DNA of 64,000 nt from Squalus acanthias. Taxonomy: Eukaryota. This document shows, one piece after another, positions 11,928 through 50,149 of the stretch. The notes under the pieces were generated by a model. It worked only from the letters and a program-made list of their open reading frames with translations. It was not told the origin of the DNA and did not search any database. Within the stretch, counting starts at the first letter, position 1, and every line of letters starts with the position of its first letter. Location of the stretch: NCBI GenBank assembly GCA_030390025.1, contig JASTWF010000048.1, positions 806,001-870,000 on the forward strand. Reading direction: 5' to 3'. A program made the translations under genes and the position numbers.

Positions 11928-12724
11928 ATGCGTTTAAATTTGCTGGTCTTGGCTCTTTTATTTCTGGCGTCGAGTAAGATAATGCTGAATAATTACAAGT
12001 GATGTACTCCTATCATCCATTCATAAAAATATTAACTAAGCTATATTGTGGTATTCGAGCATATTATTACTGAGCAGTTATATATGAACAATCAAATATT
12101 AAAAATCGATAGTTTATGTTAAACTGGAGACTGTTTGCCTCTAAGGCAGTTAATGTTCTTTTAGTTGTGCAAATATTGATTGATACATTGATGTTCTCAT
12201 TATAATTTAAGTCTGCAAATCCTTTACTTTCTTCTCTAACTTCAAGTTAGTCGCCAATCTATTGTTACTTTGCCGATAACTCCAGATATAACGGGGTAGA
12301 TTTTACTGCCGTAGAACTAGCGTTGCGAATCGGCGGCTCCACATCCTTGGTTTAACGCCCGGGCTTAATTTGACAATCCAAATAAATTTCTCAATTTCAT
12401 TCGATGTTTTTTCAGAACGTACGCTGGCGGATGTGATCCATCAGTGGCCGCCTTCGATTACTGTTGCTCAGGGAGGAGAGGCCGAGTTAAATTGTTATCA
12501 GAATGGAACAGACCGCGCTGACATGCTGTGGTATCGGCAATCCGCTGGACAAGGATTCACGTACATCGGGTATATATTTAGGGGCAGCAAAGCTGTATAT
12601 GAAGAGGATTTCAAAACCGGATTTGAAATCACAAGAACAATGAACGATAAGATGTCCAGCCTGAAGATCCACAGCGTTAAACCCACAGACGCGGCGCAGT
12701 ATTACTGTGCAGCTAGTGATGTTG
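11928..12724 (+). CDS. TRBV: TCR beta-like V segment V3 (family A), apparently functional. Leader 11928-11973, V exon 12416-12724, 23-RSS 12725-12763
   Basis: MRLNLLVLALLFLAS|GTAAGA; VIHQWP..LNC..WYRQ..YYCAASDV; CACAGTG-23-ACAAAAACT. Confidence 0.92.
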
Positions 12725-13201
12725 CACAGTGCTACAGACTGATCGGGTGCTCTGACAAAAACTGCCACAGAGAAACGTGTGGTTCTCCTGTTGCCTCAAA
12801 CAGCTTGTTACTTTCAATCTCCCGCTCGGTGACGCGTGACAATAAATTGAGAAAAAACGAGAGTGACGGTATTTTCAGCGAAGCCTAAGCGGACGAATGG
12901 GAAGAAGATGGAAAGAAAGAAGAGAGAAAGAAAGAAATAAAGCAAGAAATACAGAAAAAAAGGAATAAAGAAAGAAATGAAAGGGGGAAGTAGATAATGA
13001 AAAGATAGAAAGAAGTAAAGAGAAAAATAATTAAAGTAACAAAAATAGAAATAAAAAAGGTGGACAAATTAAAGATCCGGAGTGAGGTATTTGCCATGAC
13101 CTAACTTCCGCTTATGACGTTCTATTTTGCATGCATTAATCTGCGTCTCTCCCTCAAAGACAGAACAACCAGTGGAATGTGTCCTAGATCCCCCCGGAAA
13201 G

Positions 13202-25147: not shown

Positions 25148-26003
25148 ATGCATTTAAATTTGCTGACCTTCGCTCTTTTATTTCTGGTGCCGATTAAGAT
25201 AATGCTGAATAATTACAAGTGATGTACTAGTATAATCCATTCATCAAAATATTACCTAAGTTACATGCTGCTAATCGAGCATATTATTATCGAACAGTTA
25301 GAGATGAGCAATCAAATATTAAAAATCGGTAATTTATGTTAAACTGTAGACTTTTTGTCTCTAAGGCAGTTAATGTTATTTTAGTTGTTTAAATATTGAT
25401 CGATACATTGATGTTGTCATTATAATTTAAGTCTGCATGCCTTTACTTTCTTACCTAACTTCAATTTAATCGCCCATCTATTTTTACTTTGCCGATAACT
25501 CCAGATATAACCAGGTTGATTTTACTGCCGTAGAACTAGCGTTGCGAATCGGCGGCTCCACATCCTTGATTTTACACCCGGGCTTAATTTGACAATCCAA
25601 ATCAATTTCTCAATTTCATCCGATGTTTTTTTCATCTCTGCCGCCTCTTTTTCAGACTGTGCGCTGGACGATGTGATCCATCAGTGGCCGCCTTCGATTA
25701 CTTTTCATCTCCGAGGTGAGGTCGAGTTAAATTGTAATCAGAATGGGACAGCCCGCGATAACATGCTCTGGTATCGGCAATCCGCTGGACAAGGATTCAC
25801 GTGCATTGGATATATATATAGGGGCAGCAAAGCTGAATATGAAGAGGGTTTCAAAACCGGATTTGTGATCACACGAACCAGGAACGATAAGATGTCCAGC
25901 CTGAAAATCCACAGCGTTAAGCCCACAGACGCGGCGCTGTATTTCTGTGCAGCCAGTGATGTTGCACAGTGCCGCAGACTGATCCGACGCCCTGACAAAA
26001 ACT
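25148..26003 (+). pseudogene. TRBV: V6 (family A): intact V exon 25656-25964 and RSS 25965-26003, but leader donor mutated GT to TT (25194)
   Basis: MHLNLLTFALLFLVP|TTAAGA versus |GTAAGA in V3 and V10; YFCAASDV; CACAGTG-23-ACAAAAACT. Confidence 0.85.
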
Positions 26004-26409
26004 GTCACAGAGAAACGTGAGGTACTCGTGCAGACCCAAACCCCTTGTTACCTTTCATGTACCGCTGGCTTCCGCCCGAAAATAAGTTGAGAAAGAAACG
26101 AGAGTGAAGGTATTTGCAGCGAAGCATAAGCGGACAAAGGGAAAGAAGATGGAAAGGAAGAAAGAAAGAAGGAAAGAGTAAATGAAAGAAAGAGGAATGT
26201 AGACAAAGAAAGGATAGAACGAAATAAAGAAACAAAGAATTGAAGGAACAAAGATAGAAATAAAAAAGGTGGACAACTTAAAGATCCGGACTGAGGTAGT
26301 TGCCATGAGGTAACTTCCGCTTATGAGGTTCCATTTTGCATGCATTAATCTGCGCCTTTCCCTTAAAACCAGAACAATCAGCGGAATGTGTCTTAGATCC
26401 GAGGCAAGG

Positions 26410-30600: not shown

Positions 30601-31031
30601 ATGCATTTCACCGGGTGTCTGTTGTCTGCGCTGCTGTTGCACAGTAAGTCTGATTCTGAAGTGGCTGGGCGGCGTTTAGCTCCCAATGTCAGCGACACCT
30701 TTGATTTAAAACAATTATTTTCCTCCTTTCTGTAGGTGTAGCGAGCGACAAAGTATTGCAAAGTCCGGCTGTAATCTCCGAATCCCTGTACTCCCCGCTG
30801 CGAATCCTCTGTTCTGCGAAGGGTTCCTTTGGCTCGCAGTTTTCCTGGTACCGCCAGCTCCCAGGCGGAGAGCTCTTACTGCTCTTCTACTCTGGCAACT
30901 CCGAAAGCATCGAGCCGGAGGGAGAGGTGGACGGCTTCACCGCCTCTAGACTCGACTACTCCACCTTCCACCTGGAAACGGCCGATCTGCGAGCGGACCA
31001 CTCGGGGGTGTATTACTGCGCCTGGCGGCTC
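30601..31031 (+). CDS. TRBV: V8 (family C), intact ORF. Leader 30601-30643, V exon 30736-31031, RSS 31032-31070
   Basis: MHFTGCLLSALLLH|GTAAGT; YYCAWRL; CACAGTG-23-TCAAAAAAA (weak nonamer). Confidence 0.9.
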
Positions 31032-31699
31032 CACAGTGACACAAGTAGCCGGGGTAGTGCATCAAAAAAACAGTGCAGCAGAGAACGGGCCGCAGGGGCG
31101 AAGCAATCGCTGCTTTGCTGGGTTTAGAGTCACCGCAGAGGTTGCATGAGAAGGGTCTGCATGGGGTTAGATAGAGGAACAGCACGGATTCGATACAGGG
31201 ACAGCACGGGATAGATAGAGAGTAAAGCACATCATTCACCAGTTAAATACAAAATAAAACCCTTCATCACTCGTTAGATACAGCGTGAAGACCATCGCTC
31301 ACAAGTTAGACACAGTGTAAAGCCTCTCACTCACTGGTTAGATATATAATGAGTCAGGCAGTCAGTGTAACTCCCCTTTCTCACTCCGAAACCACAGCTG
31401 CCATCTCAAATGAATCCTCCGTGTCGTTGCAGTTTTTAAAACCCCAGACTCCGCCATCAAAGAGATGAGGCAGACCGCTGAAGAACGGGGGACCTCATCA
31501 GCCCCTCCCCGGACATCAACACGCCGATGTGGAAGCCAATGAACAAGTAAAGAGAGATTGGACCCATCCATCCGAAAATTCAACATTGGAGAGGAGGGGA
31601 CTGTAAACTCCACTCAGTGCTCAGAGCTTTGAGATATTCTACAATAAAACGGCTCAGCGACATCACGCAATAAATACTCGGAGCTGTCTCCCTCCACAG

Positions 31700-32594
31700 A
31701 TGGCTGTGGGTCAGCTCTGGGTTGTGTTGCTGGTGTTAACGGGTAAAGATGGATCTGCGCGATCCTCACTTTTATTTCTTTCTGTGTCCCGTCTGGGATT
31801 AACCCACTCCTTGGCACTTTCAATGCGAGTGTTGTTTTAGATTCTCTGTCCCTCGGTTTCCATGTACCTCCCTCTGTCTCGCTATCTGTCTGTCGCTCTG
31901 TCTGTCTCTCTTCGTCACTCTGTCACTCTATCTCTCTTTATCTCTCTGTTGTCTCACTCTCTGTCAGTCTGTCTCTGTCTCTCTACCTCTCCCTCTTTCT
32001 CTCGCTCTTATTCTATCATCTCTCTCTGCCTGCTTATACTCCTTCACGTAGGCTGGTTTCATCTATCTCTGCTCCTGTCTGTCTGTATATTTCTCGCTCC
32101 TTTTCTCAGTCCTTTTCCCTCTCTGTCTCTCTCTCTCTCTGCCCCACACTCTTCCTCTGTCTCCCTATGTGTCACTGCGACTATATCTCGCTCAACAAAC
32201 CTCTCTCACTTACCCCTCTTGTGTCTCTTCGTAGCGGTTGTCGATCCATACATTGTCCCTGAGTTTATCTCTATCTCTCTCCCTCTGTTTTACAGATGTG
32301 GGGGCCGTGGAGATACAACAGACCCCCGCTTCCATATCCAATTCCCCGGGCACTCCGCTTAGCATCGAGTGCCTTTACACAAAAGCAGAAGCTAACTCCG
32401 TTTTCTACTGGTACCGGTGGCATCCTAACCGGGAGCCTCAGAACCTTTTCTATTCTAGCTACGCCGAAACGGTCACTCCCTCCGGTCAGGTGGATGGATT
32501 CACCGCCAGGAGACCCGACAGCACCCACTTCTACCTGGAGTCCGCTAGTCTGCGAACGGATCACTCGGCCGTGTATTACTGCGTCTGGCGTCTG
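31700..32594 (+). CDS. TRBV: V9 (family D), apparently functional. Leader 31700-31742, V exon 32296-32594, RSS 32595-32633
   Basis: MAVGQLWVVLLVLT|GTAAAG; CT-rich intron; IQQTP..IEC..WYRW..YYCVWRL; CACAGTG-23-TCAAAAACC. Confidence 0.92.
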
Positions 32595-33166
32595 CACAGT
32601 GACTCAGAGAAATGGCGGAGCTCATCAAAAACCCCAAAGGGAGCAGGAAACAACTAAGGGAGATAAATCTGTCTGTGCGTCTGTCTGTCTTGTGTGAGTC
32701 TCNNNNNNNNNNNNNNNNNNNNNNNNNNNNNNNNNNNNNNNNNNNNNNNNNNNNNNNNNNNNNNNNNNNNNNNNNNNNNNNNNNNNNNNNNNNNNNNNNN
32801 NNNNNNNNNNNNNNNNNNNNNNNNNNNNNNNNNNNNNNNNNNNNNNNNNNNNNNNNNNNNNNNNNNNNNNNNNNNNNNNNNNNNNNNNNNNNNNNNNNNN
32901 NNNNNNNNNNNNNNNNNNNNNNNNNNNNNNNNNNNNNNNNNNNNNNNNNNNNNNNNNNNNNNNNNNNNNNNNNNNNNNNNNNNNNNNNNNNNNNNNNNNN
33001 NNNNNNNNNNNNNNNNNNNNNNNNNNNNNNNNNNNNNNNNNNNNNNNNNNNNNNNNNNNNNNNNNNNNNNNNNNNNNNNNNNNNNNNNNNNNNNNNNNNN
33101 NNNNNNNNNNNNNNNNNNNNNNNNNNNNNNNNNNNNNNNNNNNNNNNNNNNNNNNNNNNNNNNNNN

Positions 33167-33374
33167 ATAAGAAGTCGCACAACACCAGGTTATAGTCCAA
33201 CAGTTTTATTTAAAATTACGAGCTTTCGGAGCTGTGCTCCTTCTTCAGGTACAGGTACAGTGAGCTACTGCTCACTGTACCAGCACCTGTACCTGAAGAA
33301 GGAGCAAAGCTCCGAAAGCTCGTATTTTTAAATACAACTGTTGGACTATAACCTGGTGTTGTGCGACTTCTCAT
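33167..33374. mobile_element. Penelope-derived ~205-bp palindrome with two hammerhead motifs in opposite orientation
   Basis: Arms AGAAGTCGCACAACACCAGGTTATAGTCCAACAG.. and ..CTGTTGGACTATAACCTGGTGTTGTGCGACTTCT; motifs at 33217-33251 (-) and 33290-33324 (+). Confidence 0.75.
33290..33324 (+). ncRNA. Minimal type I hammerhead ribozyme motif
   Basis: TAC-CTGAAGA-A-GGAGC-AAA-GCTCC-GAAA-GCTC-GTA. Confidence 0.6.
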
Positions 33375-36239
33375 TTTTGTCCACCCCAGTCCAACACCGG
33401 CATCTCCGCATCATATCTAATTATCGATCTACCTATCCAAAGCTCACCTATCTACCTAAATAACTACATTTATAACATCCATCTCTCGATCTGTTTGTCT
33501 ATTCTTTGTATCATAGCGCATAAATAAATGACATATCATGGAGTGCTTCGTTATTCATGTTAATTCATCTTCTCACTCGGTTTCACTTCAAATTATATCA
33601 ATAAATTATTAATTATTCAATATGTTGTCTCAATGTTTTCGATGCCCTTCTCTTTAAAGCATTATCTAGATTATAACAAGCAAGTTACGCAATGGGGTTA
33701 ATTGCAGGCTTGAAAGTGCGGATCGGAGGATTATGGGAAGGAGTTACACATAATTCCTGATTACCAATGACAATTTGCCAGGGTAACCTCATCAGAGGAG
33801 GTGAAGATCCCTCCTGTTATCAGCCATGGCAATAGCGACGAGTGATGCAATGATTATCATAGAATCATAGAATGATATAGCACAGAAGGAGGCCATTCGG
33901 TCCATCGTGCCTCTGTCGGGTTTTGAAAGAGCTATCCAATTATGCTCATTCCCTTGACACCTTCCCCATAGCCCTTAAAGGATTTACCCTTCAAATATTA
34001 ATCCAATTCTTTTTCGAAAGTTATATTGAATGTATTTCCAACACTCTGTCAGACAGCTCATTCCAGCTGAGAACAGATCGCCGAGGAGAGAAATTCAGCT
34101 CGTCACCCGCTATGTTTATTTTGCCAATTACCTTATCTGTGTGTCCTCCGGTTTACGAATTTCCTGCCCTTGGAAAACGTTTCTCCTTATTTAATGTATC
34201 AGAACCCTTCATGATTTTGAACACCGCTTTCAAATCTCCCTTTACACTCACTGGTCTAAGAGGAACATCTCACATGAAGAGGAAAAAGTTAATCTTAGAC
34301 CTCTGAAACGTGTCACGAATGTTTCATACTGTGTAAATGCGAGATGCCTCTCCAGAAATGTTTGTCACCGAGACACCTGCCTGCTGACGGCTGTGTCAGA
34401 ATCTGTTGAAAACCGTTAACCTAGTTCTCTACCACACTCTAGGGGCCTTTTGATGTGTTTTTCAAAGAGTCTAGGAGTTCAACCCAGCGAATTATGTAAC
34501 CTTTTAATTCCCCTTTAGCACATATGAACAGAGACATGAAACAAGAGATCACTTTGACCCAACAATGATCTTTGTTTTGGAGAAACGTAGAATGGTACAG
34601 CACAGGAGGAGGCCATTCGGCCCATCATGCCTCTGCCGGTCCTTTGGAAGTGCTATCCAATTAGTCCCACACGACCCTCATCACTTTCCTCTTCATCTCA
34701 TATCCTTCTATTACTTTCTCCCTCCTGTAATTATCTAGCTTCCACTTAAATGCATCTAAGCATTTGTCTCAACTACTTCACACAGCAAATTCCACATTCT
34801 CAGCACTCTCTGGGGAAAGAGATTTCTCCTGAATTCCCTATTGGATTGATTAGTGACAATCTTAATTGTTATAAATCCCAGTATTGGTCTCCAACTATCC
34901 AATTCCAAACCAATAATGCTCTTTCCACATTGCTCTGCCGTTTTCCCCCTTCAAGTATTTATCCAATTCCCTTTTGAAAGCAACTGTTGAATCTGCTTTC
35001 ACCGCCCTTTCAGAAACTGCATTTCAGATCATAAGTACTTGACCAGTTCCTGATCTACCCACCGGCAGTTTTCCCCCTTCAAGTATTTATCCAATACCCT
35101 TTTGAAAGCGACTATTCAATCTGCTTTCACCACAGTTTGAGGCAATGTATTTCAGATCACAAGAACTTGACCAGTTAACAAGATGCTCCTGATCTACCCA
35201 TCTGATTTCTTTCCAATTACATTCAATCCGTGTTCTCTGGATACTGACTGTCCTGCCACTGGAAACGGTGTCTGCCTATCTTGTCTATCAAATTCCTCTG
35301 AACACCTCTATTAATTTTCTCCTTAATTTTCTCCGTTCCAAGGAGAACAATCCCAGCTCCTTTAGTCCCTTTGCATAACCGAACTCCCACATCCCTGTTA
35401 TCATTCAGTGTCGACTGAATAAACCAGGTTTCACAATGATCATTGTCTCACAATGATGGCGGCACTAATCCCACCTAAGTCAAATTAACAAACATATACA
35501 GTGTACGTTATAGAATATTGTATTGTATTGTCTGCCGTGGCTCAGTTGGTAGCTCTCTCGCCGCTGAGATAGATGAATGTGAGTTTGAGCCCTACTCCAG
35601 ATAATTGAGCGCAGAATTGAGGCTGATACTCCAGTGCAGTAGTGAGCGACTGCTGTACATTTGGAAGGGCAGTACTGCAGAGGTTCGGCACTGTTGGATG
35701 GGCAGTACTTACGGAATGCTGAACCGTCAGAGAGACAATACTGACGGAGTGTTGCACTGCCAGAGGTGCAATACTGAGGTCGTGCTGCACTGTTGGAAGG
35801 GCAGTCTCCAAATGAGACGGTAACCCGAGGCCCTGACTGCCCCTTCAGGAAGACGCAAAAGATCCCATGGAGATTATTTCGAAGAAGATCATGAACGTTC
35901 CCAGGTGCCCTGGCTAATAATTATCCTGAATGAAGATCACTAGAAAACGCATTATCTGGTTATTTATCACATTGCTGTTTGTGGGAGCTTGCTGCACGCA
36001 GATTGGCGGCCGCGTTTCCTTCATTTCAACAGTGACTACACTTCAAAAAGAACTTCATTGGTTGTAAAGCATTTAGGAACATTCTGAGGTCATAAGAGGC
36101 GCGATAGCAATGCAAGTCTTCTACTTTTTATTGACGCAACATCCGTTTCTGATCTTGAATCTTGCTTTTGCTTAATGACGAGCCTCACTTTCTCTGTCCG
36201 TCCTCAGTTGGCGCATTATATCGTCGATTGCTCTCAGCC

Positions 36240-37058
36240 ATGCGTTTAGATTTGCTGGTCTTTGCTCTGTTATTTCTGGCGTCGAGTAAGATAATGCTGA
36301 ATAATTAGAAGTGATGTACTCGTATCAACCATTCATCAAAATAGTAACTAAGCTATATTGTGCGATTGGAGCATATTATTAACGAACAGTTATATATGAA
36401 CGATCGATCAAATATTAAAAACCGATAATGTATCTTAAACTGGAGATTTTTTGCCTCTAAGGCAGTTAATGTTCTTTTAGTTGTGAAAATATTGATCGAT
36501 ACATTTATGTTCTCATAATAATTTAAGTCTGCATTACTTTAATTTCTTACCTAACTCCAAGTTAATCGCCAATCTATTGTTACTTTGCCGATAACTCCAG
36601 ATGTAACGGGATATATTTTACTGCCGTAGAACTAGCGTTGAGAATCGGCGGCTCCACATCCATCGTTTGACGCCCGGGCATAATTTGTCAATCGAATTCA
36701 ATTTCTCAATTTCATCCGATGTTTTTCCGCTCTGCCTTCTCTTTTTCAGACCGTACGCTGGCGGATGTGATCCATCAGTGGCCGAGTTCCATTACTTTTG
36801 CTCAGGGAGGAGAGGCCGAGATAAATTGTTATCAGAATGAAACAGACCGCGCTTACATGTTCTGGTATCGGCAATCCGCTGCACAAGGATTCACGTGCAT
36901 CGGGTATATTTATAGGGGCAGCAAAGCTAAATATGAAGAGGGTTTCAAAACTGGATTCGAAATCACACGAACCATGAACGATAAGATGTCCAGCCTGAAG
37001 ATCCACAGCGTTAAACCCACAGACGCGGCGGAGTATTTCTGTGCAGCCAGTGATGTAG
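36240..37058 (+). CDS. TRBV: V10 (family A), apparently functional. Leader 36240-36285, V exon 36750-37058, RSS 37059-37097
   Basis: MRLDLLVFALLFLAS|GTAAGA; YFCAASDV; CACAGTG-23-ACAAAAACT. Confidence 0.92.
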
Positions 37059-37374
37059 CACAGTGCCGCAGACTGATCCGGCGCCGTGACAAAAACTGTC
37101 ACAGAGAAACGTGTGCTGCTCGTGCAGACTGAAACCCCTTGTTACCTTTCATGTGCCGCTCGTTTCCGCGCGAAAATAAGTTGAGAAAGAAACGAGAGTG
37201 AAGGTATTTGCAGCGAAGCATAAGCGGACGAAGTGAAAAAAGATGGAAAGGAAGAAAGAAAGAATGAAAGAAGGAAGGAAAGAGTGGAAGAAGGAAACAA
37301 AGAAAGAACGAAAGAAAGTGGGAATTAGACAAAGAAAGGATAGAACGAAATAAAGATACAAAGAATTAAAGGAA

Positions 37375-37944
37375 CATAAGAACTGCGCAAATAGGAGCAG
37401 GAGTAGGCCATTTTGCCCCTAGAGACTGCTCCGCCATTCAATAACATCATGGCTGATCTTCTACCTCTTCTCCACTTTCCTGAACTATCCCCATATCCCT
37501 TGATTCCCTTAATATACAAAAAATTATCGAGCTCTGCCTTGAACATATTCAAAGACTGAGCGTCCACAGCCCTATGGAGTAGAGAATTCCAAAGATTCGC
37601 CATTCTCTGAGTAATGAACTTTCTCCTCATCTCGGTCCTAAATGGCGGACCCCTTATTCTGAGACTGGGACCCCTGGTTCAAGATTCCCCAGCCAGGGGA
37701 ATCATCCTCCCTGCATCTGCCCTGTTAGAATTTTGCAGGTTTCAATGAGATCACCTCTCGTTCTTCGAATCTCTAGAGAATATAGCCCTAGTCTACTCAA
37801 TCTCTCCTCAGAGGATTATCCCCCCACCCGAGGAACCAGGCTGGTGACCCTTCGTTGCATTCCCTCTATGGCAAATATATCCTTCCTTAGGTAAGGAGAC
37901 CAAAACTGTACTCCAGCTCTGGCCTCACCAAGGCCCTATATAAT
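37375..37944 (-). mobile_element. CR1 3' fragment truncated at the duplication junction
   Basis: The same insertion continues to ~51025 in the paralog at 50150. Confidence 0.8.
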
Positions 37945-38153
37945 AAGTGACTACATTTCAAAATGTACTTAATTTGTTGGAAAGCACTTGGGAACGTTCT
38001 GAGGTCATGAGAGTTGCTATCGAAATGCAAGTCTTTTCATTTCATTTACGCAACATCCGGTTCTAACCTCGCATGTTCCTTTTGCTGAATAACCAACCCT
38101 ACTTTCTCTGACAGTTCCCAGTTGGCGCATTAAGTCGTCGATTACTCTGAACG

Positions 38154-39010
38154 ATGCATTTAAATTTGCTGACCTTCGCTCTTTTATTTCTGGCGCCGAT
38201 TAAGATAATGCTGAATAATTACAAGTGATGTACTAGTATCATCCATTCATCAAAATATTAATAAAAGTTACATGCTGCTAATCGAGCATATTATTATCGA
38301 ACAGTTAGAGATGAGCAATCAAATATTAAAAATCGATAATTTATGTTAAACTGTAGACTTTTTGTCTCTAAGGCAGTTAATGTTATTTTAGTTGTTTAAA
38401 TATTGATCGATACATTGATGTTGTCATTATAATTTAAGTCTGCATGCCTTTACTTTCTTACCTAACTTCAATTTAATCGCCCATCTATTTTTACTTTGCC
38501 GATAACTCCAGATATAACCAGGTTGATTTTACTGCCGTAGAACTAGCGTTGCGAATCGGCGGCTCCACATCCTTGATTTTACACCCGGGCTTAATTTGAC
38601 AATCCAAATCAATTTCTCAATTTCATCCGATGTTTTTTTTCATCTCTGCCGCCTCTTTTTCAGACTGTGCGCTGGAGGATGTGATCCATCAGCGGTCGCC
38701 TTCGATTACTTTTGATCTCCGAGGTGAGGTCGAGTTAAATTGTAATCAGAATGGGACAGGCACGATAACATGCTCTGGTAACGGCAATCCGCTGGACAAG
38801 GATTCACGTGCATCGGGTATATATATAGGGGCAGCAAAGCTGAATGTGAAGAGAGTTTCAAAACCGGATTTGTGATCACACGGACCATGAACGATAAGAT
38901 GTCCAGCCTGAAAATCCACAGCGTTAACCCCGCAGACGCGAACGCAGTATTTCTGTGCAGCAGTGAGGGTGCACAGTGCCAAAAACTGATCCGGCGCCCT
39001 CACAAAAACT
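38154..39010 (+). pseudogene. TRBV: V11 (family A) pseudogene. Leader 38154-38199 (TT donor), V exon 38664-38971, RSS 38972-39010
   Basis: 1-nt deletion near 38760 shifts the frame, with further indels near the end; CACAGTG-23-ACAAAAACT. Confidence 0.88.
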
Positions 39011-39415
39011 GTCACAGTGAAACGTGAGGTACTCGTGCAGACCCAAACCCCTTGTTACCTTTCATGTGCCGCTGGCTTCCGCCCTAGAATAAGTAGAGAA
39101 AGAAACGAGAGTGAAGGTATTTGCAGCGAAGCATAAGCGGACAAAGGGAAAGAAGATGGAAAGGAAGAAAGAAAGAAGGAAAGAGTAAATGAAAGAAAGA
39201 GGATGTAGACAAAGAAAGGATTGAACGAAATAAAGAAACCAAGAATTGAAGGAACAAGGATAGAAACAAAAAAGGTGGACAACTTAAAGATCCGGACTGA
39301 GGCAGTTGCCATGAGGTAACTTCCGCTTATGAGGTTCCATTTTGCATGCATTAATCTGCGCCTTTCCCTTAAAACCAGAACAACCAGCGGAATGTGTCTT
39401 AGATCCTAGGCAAGG

Positions 39416-40174
39416 ATGCGATTCCATTACATCGTCTTTGCTGTTTTTTTCTGATGTTAAATATGTTCGAATGCATTCGTAATCACGGTTCTACACTTGT
39501 CCAACTAAAAAGGATAATTGATGATCTAAATAATGCAATTCGTTAACGTTACAGCGGTGAAGTGATATTCAGCCAATCAGTTATTTAATATAATATAATA
39601 GAATGTTTAATCTGTTAATTTTTGAACCAGAAGTGTCATTAATTACTTTAAACGTTGGATGGATGTTTGTAGATTTCGCGGTTCCACTTTCCAGTTGCTT
39701 TGTCCCTGGTGCTTGTCGGAAATTAGGACAGTGACTGAATTTCCATCGCTAATTCGGAGCAACTCGCACATCTATTGTCGCAAGTTTAACGTAAATTCTC
39801 CTAATTCTTTCATTTCTGTTTCCAGGTAGGTCCCGGAGCGAAGTGCTGCATCAATAGCTTCGCTCCCTTGGCGTCAACGTGCGAGACTCGGCCGAACTGA
39901 ACTGTTTTCAGAACGGCACGCTTCGCGACTACATGCTGCGGTATCGTCAGTCCGCCGGTGGATGGCTTGGTGTTAATCGGGTCAATTCAATTATTAGGTG
40001 AAGCTCATTATGAAGTGGGATTTAAGACTGGGTTTGTAATCAAGAGGTCTGTGGAAAACAAGAAGTCCAATCTGAAAATCGTGAGCAGTAAACCCGCAGC
40101 TGTGGTGGTGTATGTCTGTGCCTCTACTCATGGGACACAGCGGTTCACAGGCATTAATCCCGAGGCAAAAAACC
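39416..40174 (+). pseudogene. TRBV: V12 (family B) pseudogene. V exon 39826-40135, RSS 40136-40174
   Basis: Paralog of V7 with an added TAG in FR1; CACAGCG-23-CAAAAAACC. Confidence 0.85.
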
Positions 40175-40217
40175 TCACACGTGCTGAGCTCATTCTCGGG
40201 TAAATTTACCAACCAGT

Positions 40218-43632: not shown

Positions 43633-44063
43633 ATGCATTTCACCGGGTGTCTGTTGTCTGCGCTGCTGTTGCACAGTAAGTCTGATTCTGAAGTGGCTGG
43701 GCGGCGTTTAGCTCCCAATGTCAGCGACACCTTTGATTTAAAACAATTATTTTCCTCCTATCTGTAGGTGTAGCGAGCGACAAAGTATTGCAAAGTCCGG
43801 CTGTAATCTCCGAATCCCTGCACTCCCCGCTGCGAATCCTCTGTTCTGCGAAGGGTTCCTTTGGCTCGCAGTTTTACTGGTACCGCCAGCTCCCAGACGG
43901 AAAGCTCTTGCTGCTCTTCGACTCTGGCAACTCCGAAAGCATCGAGCCGGAGGGAGAGGTGGACGGCTTCACCGCCTCTAGACTCGACTACTCCACCTTC
44001 CACCTGGAAACGGCCGATCTGCGAGCGGACCACTCGGGGGTGTATTACTGCGCCTGGCGGCTC
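43633..44063 (+). CDS. TRBV: V13 (family C), intact ORF. Leader 43633-43675, V exon 43768-44063, RSS 44064-44102
   Basis: YYCAWRL; CACAGTG-23-TCAAAAAAA. Confidence 0.9.
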
Positions 44064-44731
44064 CACAGTGACACAAGTAGCCGGGGTAGTGCATCAAAAA
44101 AACAGTGCAGCAGAGAACGGGCCGCAGGGGCGAAGCAATCGCTGCTTTGCTGGGTTTAGAGTCACCGCAGAGTTTGCATGAGAAGGGTCTGCATGGGGTT
44201 AGATAGAGGAACAGCACGGATTCGATACAGGGACAGCACGGGATAGATAGAGAGTAAAGCACATCATTCACCAGTTAAATACAAAATAAAACCCTTCATC
44301 ACTCGTTAGATACAGCGTGAAGACCATCGCTCACAAGTTAGACACAGTGTAAAGCCTCTCACTCACTGGTTAGATATATAATGAGTCAGGCAGTCAGTGT
44401 AACTCCCCTTTCTCACTCCGAAACCACAGCTGCCATCTCAAATGAATCCTCCGTGTCGTTGCAGTTTTAAAAACCCCAGACTCCGCCATCAAAGAGATGA
44501 GGCAGACCGCTGAAGAACGGGGGACCTCATCAGCCCCTCCCCGGACATCAACACGCCGGTGTGGAAGCCAATGAGCAAGTAAAGAGAGATTGGACCCATC
44601 CATCCGAAAATTCAACATTGGAGATGAGGGGACTGTAAACTCCACTCAGTGCTCAGAGCTTTGAGGTATTCTACAATAAAACGGCTCAGCGACATCACGC
44701 AATAAATACTCGGAGCTGTCTCCCTCCACAG

Positions 44732-45626
44732 ATGGCTGTGTGTCAGCTCTGGGTTGTGTTGCTGTTGTTAACGGGTAAAGATGGATCTGCGCGATCCTCA
44801 CTTTTATTTATTTCTGTGTCCCGTCTGGGATTAACCCACTCCTTGGCACTTTCAATGCGAGTGTTGTTTTAGATTCTCTGTCCCTCGATTTCCATGTACC
44901 TCCCTCTGTTTCGCTATCTGTCTGTCGCTCTGTCTGTCTCTCTTCGTCACTCTGTCACTCTATCTCTCTTTATCTCTCTGTTGTCTCACTCTCTGTCAGT
45001 CTGTCTCTTTCTCTCTACCTCTCCCTCTTTCTCTCGCTCTTATTCTATCATCTGTCTCTGCCTGCTTATACTCCTTCACGTAGGCTGGTTTCATCTCTCT
45101 CTGCTCCTGTCTGTCTGCATATTTCTCGCTCCTTTTCTCAGTCCTTTTCCCTCTCTGTCTCTCTCTCTCTCTGCCCCACACTCTTCCTCTGTCTCCCTCT
45201 GTGTCACTGCGACTATATCTCGCTCAACAAACCTCTCTCACTCACCCCTCTTGTGTCTCTTCGTAGCGGTTGTCGATCCATACATTGTCCCTGAGTTTAT
45301 CTCTATCTCTCTCCCTCTGTTTTACAGATGTGGGGGCTGTGGAGATACAACAGACCCCCGCTTCCATTTCCAATTCCCCGGGCACTCCGCTTAGCATCGA
45401 GTGCCTTTACACAAAAGCAGAAGCTAACTCCGTTTTCTACTGGTACCGGTGGCATCCTAACCGGGAGCCTCAGAACCTTTTCTATTCTAGCTACGCCGAA
45501 ACGGTCACTCCCTCCGGTCAGGTGGATGGATTCACCGCCAGGAGACCCGACAGCACCCACTTCTACCTGGAGTCCGCTAGTCTGCGGACGGATCACTCGG
45601 CCGTGTATTACTGCGTCTGGCGTCTG
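44732..45626 (+). CDS. TRBV: V14 (family D), apparently functional. Leader 44732-44774, V exon 45328-45626, RSS 45627-45665
   Basis: V domain protein identical to V9; CACAGTG-23-TCAAAAACC. Confidence 0.92.
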
Positions 45627-45941
45627 CACAGTGACTCAGAGAAATGGCGGAGCTCATCAAAAACCCCAAAGGGAGCAGGAAACAACTAAGGGAGATAAAT
45701 CTGTCTGTGCGTCTGTCTGTCTCTGTGTGAGTCTCNNNNNNNNNNNNNNNNNNNNNNNNNNNNNNNNNNNNNNNNNNNNNNNNNNNNNNNNNNNNNNNNN
45801 NNNNNNNNNNNNNNNNNNNNNNNNNNNNNNNNNNNNNNNNNNNNNNNNNNNNNNNNNNNNNNNNNNNNNNNNNNNNNNNNNNNNNNNNNNNNNNNNNNNN
45901 NNNNNNNNNNNNNNNNNNNNNNNNNNNNNNNNNNNNNNNNN

Positions 45942-46149
45942 ATAAGAAGTCGCACAACACCAGGTTATAGTCCAACAATTTTATTTAACATTACGAGCTT
46001 TCGGAGCTCTGCTCCTTCTTCAGGTACAGGTACAGTGAGGTACTGCTCACTGTACCAGCACCTGTACCTGAAGAAGGAGCAAAGCTCCGAAAGCTCGTAT
46101 TTTTAAATACAACTGTTGGACTATAACCTGGTGTTGTGCGACTTCTCAT
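45942..46149. mobile_element. Penelope-derived palindrome with hammerhead motifs at 45992-46026 (-) and 46065-46099 (+)
   Basis: Paralog of 33167-33374. Confidence 0.75.
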
Positions 46150-49013
46150 TTTTGTCCACCCCAGTCCAACACCGGCATCTCCGCATCATATCTAATTATC
46201 GATCTACCTATCCAAAGCTCACCTATCTACCGAAATAACTACATTTATAACATCCATCTCTCGATCTGTTTGTCTATTCTTTGTATCATAGCGCATAAAT
46301 AAATGACATATCATGGAGTGCTTCGTTATTCATGTTAATTCATCTTCTCACTCGGTTTCACTTCAAATTATATCAATAAATTATTAATTATTCAATATGT
46401 TGTCTCAATATTTTCGATGCCCTTCCCTTTAAAGCATTATCTAGATTATAACAAGCAAGTTACGCGATGGGGTTAATTGCAGGCTTGAAAGTGCGGATCG
46501 GAGGATTATGGGAAGGAGTTACACATAATTCCTGATTACCAATGACAATTTGCCAGGGTAACCTCATCAGAGGAGGTGAAGATCCCTCCTGTTATCAGCC
46601 ATGGCAATAGCGACGAGTGATGCAATGATTATCATAGAATCATAGAATGATATAGCACAGAAGGAGGCCATTCGGTCCATCGTGCCTGTGTCGGGTTTTG
46701 AAAGAGCTATCCAATTATGCTCATTCCCTTGACACCTTCCCCATAGCCCTTAAAGGATTTACCCTTCAAATATTAATCCAATTCTTTTTCGAAAGTTATA
46801 TTGAATCTATTTCCAACACTCTGTCAGACAGCTCATTCCAGCTGAGAACAGATCGCCGAGGAGAGAAATTCAGCTCGTCACCCGCTATGTTTATTTTGCC
46901 AATTACCTTATCTGGGTGTCCTCCGGTTTACGAATTTCCTGCCCTTGGAAAACGTTTCTCCTTATTTAATGTATCAGAACCCTTCATGATTTTGAACACC
47001 GCTTTCAAATCTCCCTTTACACTCACTGGTCTAAGAGGAACATCTCACATGAAGAGGAAAAAGTTAATCTTAGAACTCTGAAACGTGTCACGAATGTTTC
47101 ATACTGTGTAAATGCGAGATGCCTCTCCAGAAATGTTTGTCACCGAGACACCTGCCTGCTGACGGCTGTGTCAGAATCTGTTGAAAACCGTTAACCCACT
47201 TCTCTACCACACTCTAGGGGCCTTTTGATGTGTTTTTCAAAGAGTCTAGGAGTTCAACCCAGCGAATTATGTAACCTTTTAATTCCCCTTTAGCACATAT
47301 GAACAGAGACATGAAACAAGAGATCACTTTGACCCAACAATGATCTTTGTTTTGGAGAAACGTAGAATGGTACAGCACAGGAGGAGGCCATTCGGCCCAT
47401 CATGCCTGTGCCGGTCCTTTGGAAGTGCAATCCAATTAGTCCCACACGACCCTCATCACTTTCCTCTTCATCTCATATCCTTCTATTACTTTCTCCCTCC
47501 TGTAATTATCTAGCTTGCAGTTATATGCATCTAAGCATTTGTCTCAACTACTTCACACAGCAAGTTCCACATTCTCAGCACTCTCTGGGGAAAGAGATTT
47601 CTCCTGAATTCCCTATTGGATTGATTAGTGACAATCTTAATTGTTATAAATCCCAGTATTGGTCTCCAACTATCCAATTCCAAACCAATAATGCTCTTTC
47701 CACATTGCTCTGCCGTTTTCCCCCTTCAAGTATTTATCCAATTCCCTTTTGAAAGCAACTGTTGAATCTGCTTTCACCGCCCTTTCAGACACTGCATTTC
47801 AGATCATAAGTACTTGACCAGTTCCTGATCTACCCACCGGCAGTTTTCCCCCTTCAAGTATTTATCCAATACCCTTTTGAAAGCGACTATTCAATCTGCT
47901 TTCACCACAGTTTGAGGCAATGTATTTCAGATCACAAGAACTTGACCAGTTAACATGATGCTCCTGATCTACCCATCTGTTTCTTTCCAATTACATTCAA
48001 TCCGTATGCTCTGGAGACTGACTGTCCTGCCACTGGAAACGGTGTCTGCCTATCTTGTCTATCAAATTCCTCTGAACACCTCTATTAATTTTCTCCTTAA
48101 CTTTCTCTGTTCCAAGGAGAACAATCCCAGCTCCTTTAGTCCCTTTGCATAACCGAACTCCCACATCCCTGTTATCATTCAGTGTCGACTGAATAAACCA
48201 GGTTTCACAATGATCATTGTCTCACAATGATGGCGGCACTAATCCCACCTAAGTCAAATTAACAAACATATACAGTGTACGTTATAGAATATTGTATTGT
48301 ATTGTCTGCCGTGGCTCAGTTGGTAGCTCTCTCGCCGCTGAGATAGATGAATGTGAGTTTGAGCCCTACTCCAGATAATTGAGCGCAGAATTGAGGCTGA
48401 TACTCCAGTGCAGTAGTGAGCGACTGCTGTACATTTGGAAGGGCAGTACTGCAGAGGTTCGGCACTGTTGGATGGGCAGTACTTACGGAATGCTGAACCG
48501 TCAGAGAGACAATACTGACGGAGTGTTGCACTGCCAGAGGTGCAATACTGAGGTCGTGCTGCACTGTTGGAGGGGCCGTCTCTAAATGAGACGGTAAACC
48601 GAGGCCCTGACTGCCCCTTCAGGAAGACGCAAAAGATCCCTTGGAGATTATTTCGAAGAAGATCATGAACGTTCCCAGGTGCCCTGGCTAATAATTATCC
48701 TGAATGAAGATCACTAGAAAACGCATTATCTGGTTATTTATCACATTGCTGTTTGTGGGAGCTTGCTGCGCGCAGATTGGCGGCCGCGTTTCCTTCATTT
48801 CAACAGTGACTACACTTCAAAAAGAACTTCATTGGTTGTAAAGCATTTAGGAACATTCTGAGGTCATAAGAGGCGCGATAGCAATGCAAGTCTTCTACTT
48901 TTTATTGACGCAACATCCGTTTCTGATCTTGAATCTTGCTTTTGCTTAATGACGAGCCTCACTTTCTCTGTCCGTCCTCAGTTGGCGCATTATATCGTCG
49001 ATTGCTCTCAGCC

Positions 49014-49832
49014 ATGCGTTTAGATTTGCTGGTCTTTGCTCTTTTATTTCTGGCGTCGAGTAAGATAATGCTGAATAATTAGAAGTGATGTACTCGTATC
49101 AACCATTCATCAAAATAGTAACTAAGCTATATTGTGCGATTGGAGCATATTATTAACGAACAGTTATATATGAACGATCGATCAAATATTAAAAACCGAT
49201 AATGTATCTTAAACTGGAGATTTTTTGCCTCTAAGGCAGTTAATGTTCTTTTAGTTGTGAAAATATTGATCGATACATTTATGTTCTCATTATAATTTAA
49301 GTCTGCATTACTTTAATTTCTTACCTAACTCCAAGTTAATCGCCAATCTATTGTTACTTTGCCGATAACTCCAGATGTAACGGGGTATATTTTACTGCCG
49401 TAGAACTAGCGTTGAGAATCGGCGGCTCCACATCCATCGTTTGACGCCCGGGCTTAATTTGTCAATCCAATTCAATTTCTCAATTTCATCCGATGTTTTT
49501 CCGCTCTGCCTTCTCTTTTTCAGACCGTACGCTGGCGGATGTGATCCATCAGTGGCCGAGTTCCATTACTTTTGCTCAGGGAGGAGAGGCCGAGATAAAT
49601 TGTTATCAGAATGAAACAGACCGCGCTTACATGTTCTGGTATCGGCAATCCGCTGCACAAGGATTCACGTGCATCGGGTATATTTATAGGGGCAGCAAAG
49701 CTAAATATGAAGAGGGTTTCAAAACTGGATTCGAAATCACACGAACCATGAACGATAAGATGTCCAGCCTGAAGATCCACAGCGTTAAACCCACAGACGC
49801 GGCGGAGTATTTCTGTGCAGCCAGTGATGTAG
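49014..49832 (+). CDS. TRBV: V15 (family A), apparently functional. Leader 49014-49059, V exon 49524-49832, RSS 49833-49871
   Basis: Protein identical to V10; CACAGTG-23-ACAAAAACT. Confidence 0.92.
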
Positions 49833-50149
49833 CACAGTGCCGCAGACTGATCCGGCGCCGTGACAAAAACTGTCACAGAGAAACGTGTGCTGCTCGTGCA
49901 GACTGAAACCCCTTGTTACCTTTCATGTGCCGCTCGTTTCCGCGCGAAAATAAGTTGAGAAAGAAACGAGAGTGAAGGTATTTGCAGCGAAGCATAAGCG
50001 GACGAAGTGAAAAAAGATGGAAAGGAAGAAAGAAAGAGTGAAAGAAGGAAGGAAAGAGTGGAAGAAGGAAACAAAGAAAGAACGAAAGAAAGTGGGAATT
50101 AGACAAAGAAAGGATAGAACGAAATAAAGATACAAAGAATTAAAGGAAC

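Follow-up and report, generated by a model that had tools for sequence, protein, structure and literature searches.

The V genes of one T cell receptor (TCR) beta family of Squalus acanthias, here family A, carry behind their canonical 23-RSS (RSS1) a second heptamer followed at 23 nt by a nonamer-like motif (RSS2), which raises the question of whether RSS2 is a selected joining site or a cryptic signal. The window, the 64,000-nt stretch G000:C3311:806001-870000, was analysed as part of about 1.06 Mb of the 2.28-Mb contig. Contig positions given below follow the G000:C3311 numbering, and all other positions are those of the window.

A scan of the fetched part of the contig identified 156 V-RSS units, which fall into 24 families at a threshold of at least 76% identity; it is incomplete and missed, for instance, gene V11, which was put in by hand where stated. 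A D segment, GGGACAGGGGGGA, carries a 12- and a 23-RSS, and another D lies on the minus strand. There are 39 J segments (35 on the plus and four on the minus strand) and two C exons that are 35% identical, arranged in D-J-C clusters at contig positions 960540-1014890 (plus) and 1073376-1098961 (minus). On the plus strand, V-like matches begin at about 50 kb and extend to 952 kb; on the minus strand they range between 1105 kb and 2118 kb. These segments make up a TCR-beta locus in which two D-J-C clusters converge and inward-facing V arrays lie on both flanks. Family A combines a leader and a V-set exon with the Cys/Trp/Cys residues, a 23-RSS, and linkage to D (12/23), J (12) and C-beta segments, and its TRBV assignment is also backed by one V-D-J contig. 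The nearest named homologs of gene V3 come from Heptranchias perlo (78%), Chiloscyllium punctatum (58%) and Heterodontus francisci (50%); a PDB search returned generic V domains, and a protein search at similar length gave a single distant match. The D/J/C linkage and the shark homologs bear out the identification of family A as shark TCR-beta V genes made in a preliminary description of the window. In the first D-J-C cluster, the J heptamer at contig position 961703 (J at 961721) has nonamer-like motifs at both 12- and 23-nt spacing, an overlapping 12/23 signal whose 23-nt-spaced motif scores 17.4 bits. A repeated 23-RSS-like motif (15-17 bits) was also seen after a T run, with no preceding V end, at contig positions 779840, 1557955, 1568330 and 1821184.

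Five family-A genes lie on the plus strand of the window. V3 has a leader exon at 11928..11973, with a GT donor at 11974, and an intact TRBV exon at 12416..12724 that ends in CAASDV and is 78% identical to V1 of Heptranchias XP_067835400.1, of the same family. Its RSS1 (12725..12763) is a canonical 23-RSS, CACAGTG / ACAAAAACT, scoring 25.1 bits, and the cryptic 23-RSS-like RSS2 (12766..12804) reads CACAGAG / TCAAACAGC, with 15.1 bits without and -4.1 bits with the spacer. V6 has an exon at 25656..25964 with an open frame, RSS1 at 25965..26003 and an RSS2-like motif at 26006..26044 (CACAGAG / CCAAACCCC; 9.9 bits). V10 has an intact exon at 36750..37058, RSS1 at 37059..37097 and an RSS2-like motif at 37100..37138 (CACAGAG / TGAAACCCC; 8.0 bits). 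V11, a pseudogene with a frameshift, stops and a TT donor, has its exon at 38664..38971, RSS1 at 38972..39010 and, at 39013..39051, an RSS2-like motif with the consensus heptamer (CACAGTG / CCAAACCCC; 11.3 bits). V15, intact and almost identical to V10, has its exon at 49524..49832, RSS1 at 49833..49871 and an RSS2-like motif at 49874..49912 (CACAGAG / TGAAACCCC; 8.0 bits). Heptamer, 23-nt spacer and nonamer-like motif were thus found behind all five genes exactly where they had been described. V10 and V15 are not independent, since a block of about 13 kb is tandemly duplicated (window about 31000-40200 and 44000-50000, with RSSs at 31032/44064, 32595/45627 and 37059/49833).

Three further copies lie on the minus strand in the inverted arm (contig positions 1405584, 1420077 and 1432390), each with CACAGAG-23-TCAAACTCC. 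Among the eight copies, V3, V10, V15, 1405584 and 1432390 appear intact, while V11 and 1420077 are frameshifted. The read-through peptides reported for four supposedly intact exons were recovered as claimed, with the correction that the leader donor of V6 is TT instead of GT; judging from that donor, expression of V6 is improbable even though its exon is open. CAC triplets had also been pointed out after the nonamers of V1 (1714) and family B (27161); they are present, with neither a good heptamer nor a good nonamer. Family B itself (window 27121 and 40136) shows no open V frame in the scan and resembles, by eye, an 18-member sister family; its signal fits a 22-nt spacer, and the CAC after its nonamer is offset just as it is in family A.

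The tandem arrangement is confined to family A. An exact genome-wide pattern search for an RSS followed within 0-6 nt by CACAGHG gave eight matches, all in family A, and a reversed control gave none. In every copy RSS2 starts 41 nt past RSS1, 2 nt after its nonamer and on the same strand, with a spacer of exactly 23 nt; the heptamer is CACAGAG in 7/8 copies and CACAGTG in 1/8. The common flank shared by the eight copies points to a single ancestral event, in agreement with the shared ancestry noted earlier. To score the motifs, a matrix for heptamer and nonamer was built from the locus itself (135 RSSs of V genes outside family A, from 20 families, family-weighted) instead of a published RIC model. 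RSS2 reaches 8-15 bits, within the top 0.1-0.3% of 31,337 CAC sites; one site of at least 8 bits was counted per 13 kb. At least one of the 24 families would have such a site after its nonamer by chance with a probability of 1.8% for a 10-nt window and 10% for a 60-nt window, or of 0.5% and 2.8%, respectively, for a site of 15 bits; these probabilities are overstated, because the count of sites of at least 8 bits includes true RSSs missed by the scan. In the other 23 families, no site of at least 8 bits lies within 60 nt after the nonamer (best, 6.3 bits). RSS2 is therefore modestly more RSS-like than expected by chance for a single ancestral event, and, like a cryptic RSS, it lies outside the gene's own RSS with matching orientation and spacer class. 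Registers of 22 or 24 nt score higher only for V6 (12.3 bits) and V11 (13.7 bits). A metagenome scan for the tandem pattern gave 0 matches, and a scan of related loci returned three whose match, limited to 19 residues, was discarded as spurious. A splice donor at the invariant GT (AAC|GT) was considered by eye and rejected, as the following bases vary (GAGG, GTGG, GTGC, TTCG, TTGG).

Compared with true RSSs, RSS2 is not as good as a real signal. RSS1 scores 25-26.5 bits with the locus matrix, and only 1-3 of the 135 true RSSs score as low as RSS2 when their own family is left out of the matrix. Once the spacer is scored too, RSS2 falls to between -11 and +1 bits, a range reached by 0-1 of 135. 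The defect lies in the nonamer, the CAC heptamer being close to CACAGTG and the spacer within 23 +/- 1 nt, with the A-tract not intact. As the preliminary description had cautioned, A6 is absent from the second nonamer in 8/8 copies, C standing at position 6 in each, and A7 is also absent in 7/8; its AAAC core is invariant (8/8). A6 is present in 134/135 of the other V nonamers, a count slightly biased because these were called under a mismatch limit, and none of the 135 is without both A6 and A7; all 36 J RSSs have both. The heptamer CACAGAG occurs in 5/135 of the other V RSSs of the locus.

Published data on RSS function, as far as the accessible parts of the sources go, point in the same direction. 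Functional nonamers have purine-A/T-purine in common at positions 4-6 (PMC12711392). The RSS1 nonamer is among the 1000 top-predicted nonamers of that study, and none of the 11 RSS2 registers searched is, although this list represents 0.4% of all nonamers and absence from it is no proof of inactivity. For heptamers, the retrievable SARP-seq data come from a 12-RSS plasmid assay with mammalian RAG (PMC9723617). In these data the heptamer plus 2 nt of RSS2, CACAGAGAA (CACAGAG+AA), accounts for 0.008% of signal joints made by mammalian RAG. The RSS1 heptamers account for 1.15% (V3), 0.128% (V6, V10, V11 and V15) and 0.151% (minus arm) in the same portion of the data, that is 143-, 16- and 19-fold more, respectively, with mammalian RAG. 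The second heptamer of V11 reaches 0.33% of signal joints there, yet V11 is a pseudogene.

To determine whether RSS2 has been maintained, parsimony steps per column were counted on the tree of the eight copies, with intron windows as a reference. The intron changed at 0.54 steps per column, nonamer 1 at 0.00, nonamer 2 at 0.56, and heptamers 1 and 2 at 0.14 each. Nonamer 2 underwent five changes in nine columns and nonamer 1 none in nine. The conservation of heptamer 2 alone is equalled by 40/395 intron windows. Heptamer 2 and nonamer 2 together took six steps in 16 columns, equalled by 84/363 intron windows, whereas heptamer 1 and nonamer 1 took one step in 16 columns, equalled by 0/363. The heptamer and nonamer of RSS2 thus show no purifying selection. 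The constancy of spacer length, to which attention had been drawn, holds in 8/8 copies, but 270/441 intron windows of 23 columns are also indel-free. The last 17 nt of spacer 2 (window 12779-12795) accumulated 17 steps in 17 columns, about twice the intron rate and matched by 4/385 intron windows; this segment is CpG-rich (0.088 versus 0.035 per nt).

The V frame had been described as staying open through RSS1, which is so in 6/6 open family-A exons. This openness is uninformative, because the frame is also open across the RSS in 107/135 other intact V genes, from 15/20 families, and is not above chance. The six open exons encode 3, 2, 2, 2, 1 and 0 Cys in the extension, the values of 0 and 1 belonging to the two intact minus-arm copies. 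The first Cys depends on the TG of the heptamer CACAGTG and the last on the final T of the nonamer; in the minus-arm copies the heptamer is CACAGCG and reads AQRY. The last Cys would fall at the coding end and be subject to trimming. At least two Cys are also found in six V genes from four other families. Among codon positions of spacer 1, the third changes least (0.38 versus 0.75 and 0.57, over 23 columns only), the opposite of protein-level constraint, with the reservation of small numbers. The earlier proposal of an insert with 2-3 Cys, giving a disulfide-looped long CDR3, is not supported by these counts, as the Cys are not family-wide and are lost in the minus-arm copies; no conserved even pair of Cys runs through the family.

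Regarding the history of the flank, CAC stands at +2 to +4 in related V lineages of the locus (contig positions 899515, 890780 and 1451740). The element CAAAC lies at +33 in family A; four related V lineages have it at +17, +22, +31 and +40, and in none of 19 unrelated families is it found in most copies. The 18-member sister family has CAG in place of CAC and mostly carries TCAGAC. The 10-mer GCCTCAAACT, common to family A and the V at 1451740, is the longest exact match among the 23 families; at 1451740 the match implies a 5-nt spacer. Whole-flank alignments of family A with the related lineages are partly significant (p 0.006-0.55), and homology of the flanks is likely, not proven. The distant single-copy V at 899515 shows CACTGCG 2 nt after its nonamer, with CAAAC placed as for a 12-nt spacer, a low-scoring arrangement that may be a coincidence. 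Outside the dogfish, the Heptranchias V and family A form one group, with bootstrap values of 84-90 that stay below the starred level. The gene model of this V reads AQCRRQIGRPYKICHRDT (...KICHRDT), compatible with a retained CACAGAG heptamer. The remainder of the model may belong to a further exon; were it unspliced, the codons 23 nt past the heptamer would be Met-Met-Glu, not a nonamer, and the spacing would be lost. A search for shorter relatives of this V found none. More distant gene models end in DKNFQ (Chiloscyllium) or read HKNSY (Mobula) and YTKFHA (Leucoraja), with no CACAG there.

Evidence of use was sought by placing on V3 the assembled contigs of three runs, guessed to be RNA, such contigs being prone to drop rare variants. 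One family-A contig was placed; positions 12722-12830 are without cover, which in assembled contigs is no evidence of absence. Run X1, presumably RNA, supplied this 954-nt contig, whose alignment covers 12618-12721 and is followed by GGGAC-GACAATGATCCAG. Its two listed variant letters are those of the minus-arm copies, and the continuation corresponds to D2 and the J at contig position 1096409. The CDR3, CAASDGDDNDPVTF, is in frame and without RSS1 letters. The family-A junctions seen are thus at RSS1 in 1/1 cases, and one junction is compatible with rare use of RSS2.

We consider it probable that RSS2 is a degraded 23-RSS-like motif, present in all eight family-A copies as an unselected cryptic signal, and that RAG cuts at RSS1 in nearly all joins. 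This verdict is reached because RSS2 is real, of one origin and RSS-like, yet fails the tests of nonamer quality and selection. RSS2 would have originated once in the family-A ancestor, when a CAC just after the nonamer and a CAAAC element of the flank came to stand 23 nt apart, and gene duplication would then have spread it through the family. Offered two 23-RSSs of unequal strength at an offset of 41 nt, RAG would pick the stronger, and its use of RSS2 may amount to well under 1% of family-A joins. Rare joining at RSS2 is possible in principle. In a join of this kind RSS1 would remain part of the coding joint; the join would gain 41 nt or about 14 codons and be in frame about one-third of the time; the retained RSS1 would face the downstream J 12-RSSs and could be cut again. 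These joins would represent recombination noise rather than a device of the repertoire.

Alternatively, the RSS itself could have been duplicated head to tail long ago with a 41-bp period, leaving RSS2 as a decaying, now functionless relic and the CAC and CAAAC of related lineages as more decayed remnants. The period of exactly one RSS plus 2 nt fits this history, as do the heptamer-like and nonamer-like remnants in those lineages and, for two minus-arm copies, an identity of 10/23 positions between spacers 1 and 2 (p about 0.05 by shuffling). However, the identity falls to 5-8/23 in the other six copies (p 0.23-0.72), within the range of spacers from unrelated families, and RSS2 scores at background level once its spacer is counted, so that we regard a duplication as unlikely. 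It is quite improbable that the 13-bp block CACAGAGAAACGT and CAAAC are protein-binding sites next to the RSS, comparable to the CTCF sites of other V families, with an incidental resemblance to a signal. Heptamer 2 and the following 6 nt did undergo one change in 13 columns (as in 1/389 intron windows), CAAAC recurs in related lineages, and family 8 is also conserved right after its nonamer (divergence 0.022 versus 0.16-0.25 further out). The 13-column block was nevertheless picked post hoc, a window scan of the flank is not significant (p = 0.08-0.14), and no common gapped 7-mer is enriched after nonamers across families, nor is the motif CAGnGAAC.

The functional reading originally offered holds in so far as the motif is RSS-like. 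In its full form, RSS2 would be a selected alternative signal, in use often enough to place about 14 germline residues with Cys in CDR3-beta and to leave inside the joined gene a 23-RSS through which it could rearrange a second time, V to J or V to D2. The exact 23-nt spacing in 8/8 copies, the outlying RSS score, the conserved heptamer block, the His-Arg retained in the Heptranchias member, the frame open in 6/6 open exons and the precedent of poor-nonamer signals in use all speak for it. Against a selected long-CDR3 route stand a nonamer 2 that evolves at the intron rate (5/9 columns changed versus 0/9 in nonamer 1) and lacks A6 in every copy, the disappearance of the Cys from the minus-arm copies, a spacer 1 without protein-type constraint (small numbers), the single observed junction at RSS1, and the fact that the best heptamer, CACAGTG, belongs to the pseudogene V11. 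We hold selection of RSS2 to be highly improbable. The most far-reaching form of this reading, in which this TRBV family uses the weaker RSS2 in at least 1% of its joins, has RSS1 translated as a 14-residue, often Cys-bearing CDR3-beta insert and available for re-editing, and has kept the signal since before the Heptranchias split, seems to us equally improbable.

A degraded cryptic signal in this position likely belongs to a type for which mouse TRBJ genes provide documented examples, to judge from the sections of Mika et al. 2019 available (PMC6857471). As at TRBJ1-2 (signal at -31) and TRBJ1-7 (-40), a second RSS with a good heptamer and a poor nonamer lies 30-40 nt outside the annotated one, and its use leaves the first RSS in the coding joint as germline sequence. 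In the same sections, the -31 signal of TRBJ1-2 serves in <0.1% of joins, and at TRBJ1-7, whose two signals are equally poor, the -40 signal is the only one used. Unlike the family-A motif, the mouse cases are 12-RSSs of J genes whose use is proven by coding and signal joints; RSS2 is a 23-RSS of a multicopy shark V family, known from sequence alone. Retention of the RSS on the V side is also described there, without a recognisable second RSS and at about 0.001-0.003% overall. Genomic cryptic RSSs likewise lie above background and below the physiological level; in mammals the RIC threshold is exceeded at a density of about 5 x 10^-4 per bp, according to the available text of Cowell et al. 2003 (PMC2193808). 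RSS2 differs from them in being directly tandem with a true RSS and amplified with a V family. VH replacement, in the portions at hand of PMC3526766 and PMC3906580, similarly rearranges a joined gene again through a retained signal; there, an embedded heptamer in the V coding end allows an upstream V to supplant the old one. In family A, by contrast, it is the complete 23-RSS of the V itself that would be retained, facing downstream, so that this V would be joined afresh to a later J or D. In the mouse, the beyond-12/23 rule prevents V genes from joining J segments directly (PMC2642999), a mouse and not a shark finding. No report of such an arrangement was found in the openly accessible literature on V genes with a tandem, double or second RSS or on the germline organisation of shark TRB.

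If RSS2 were regularly used, a recombination signal would also serve as coding sequence, and TCR-beta would gain a germline route to antibody-like long, disulfide-bearing loops together with a re-editing site. The tandem signals of family A constitute a natural experiment on the choice that RAG makes between neighbouring 23-RSSs.
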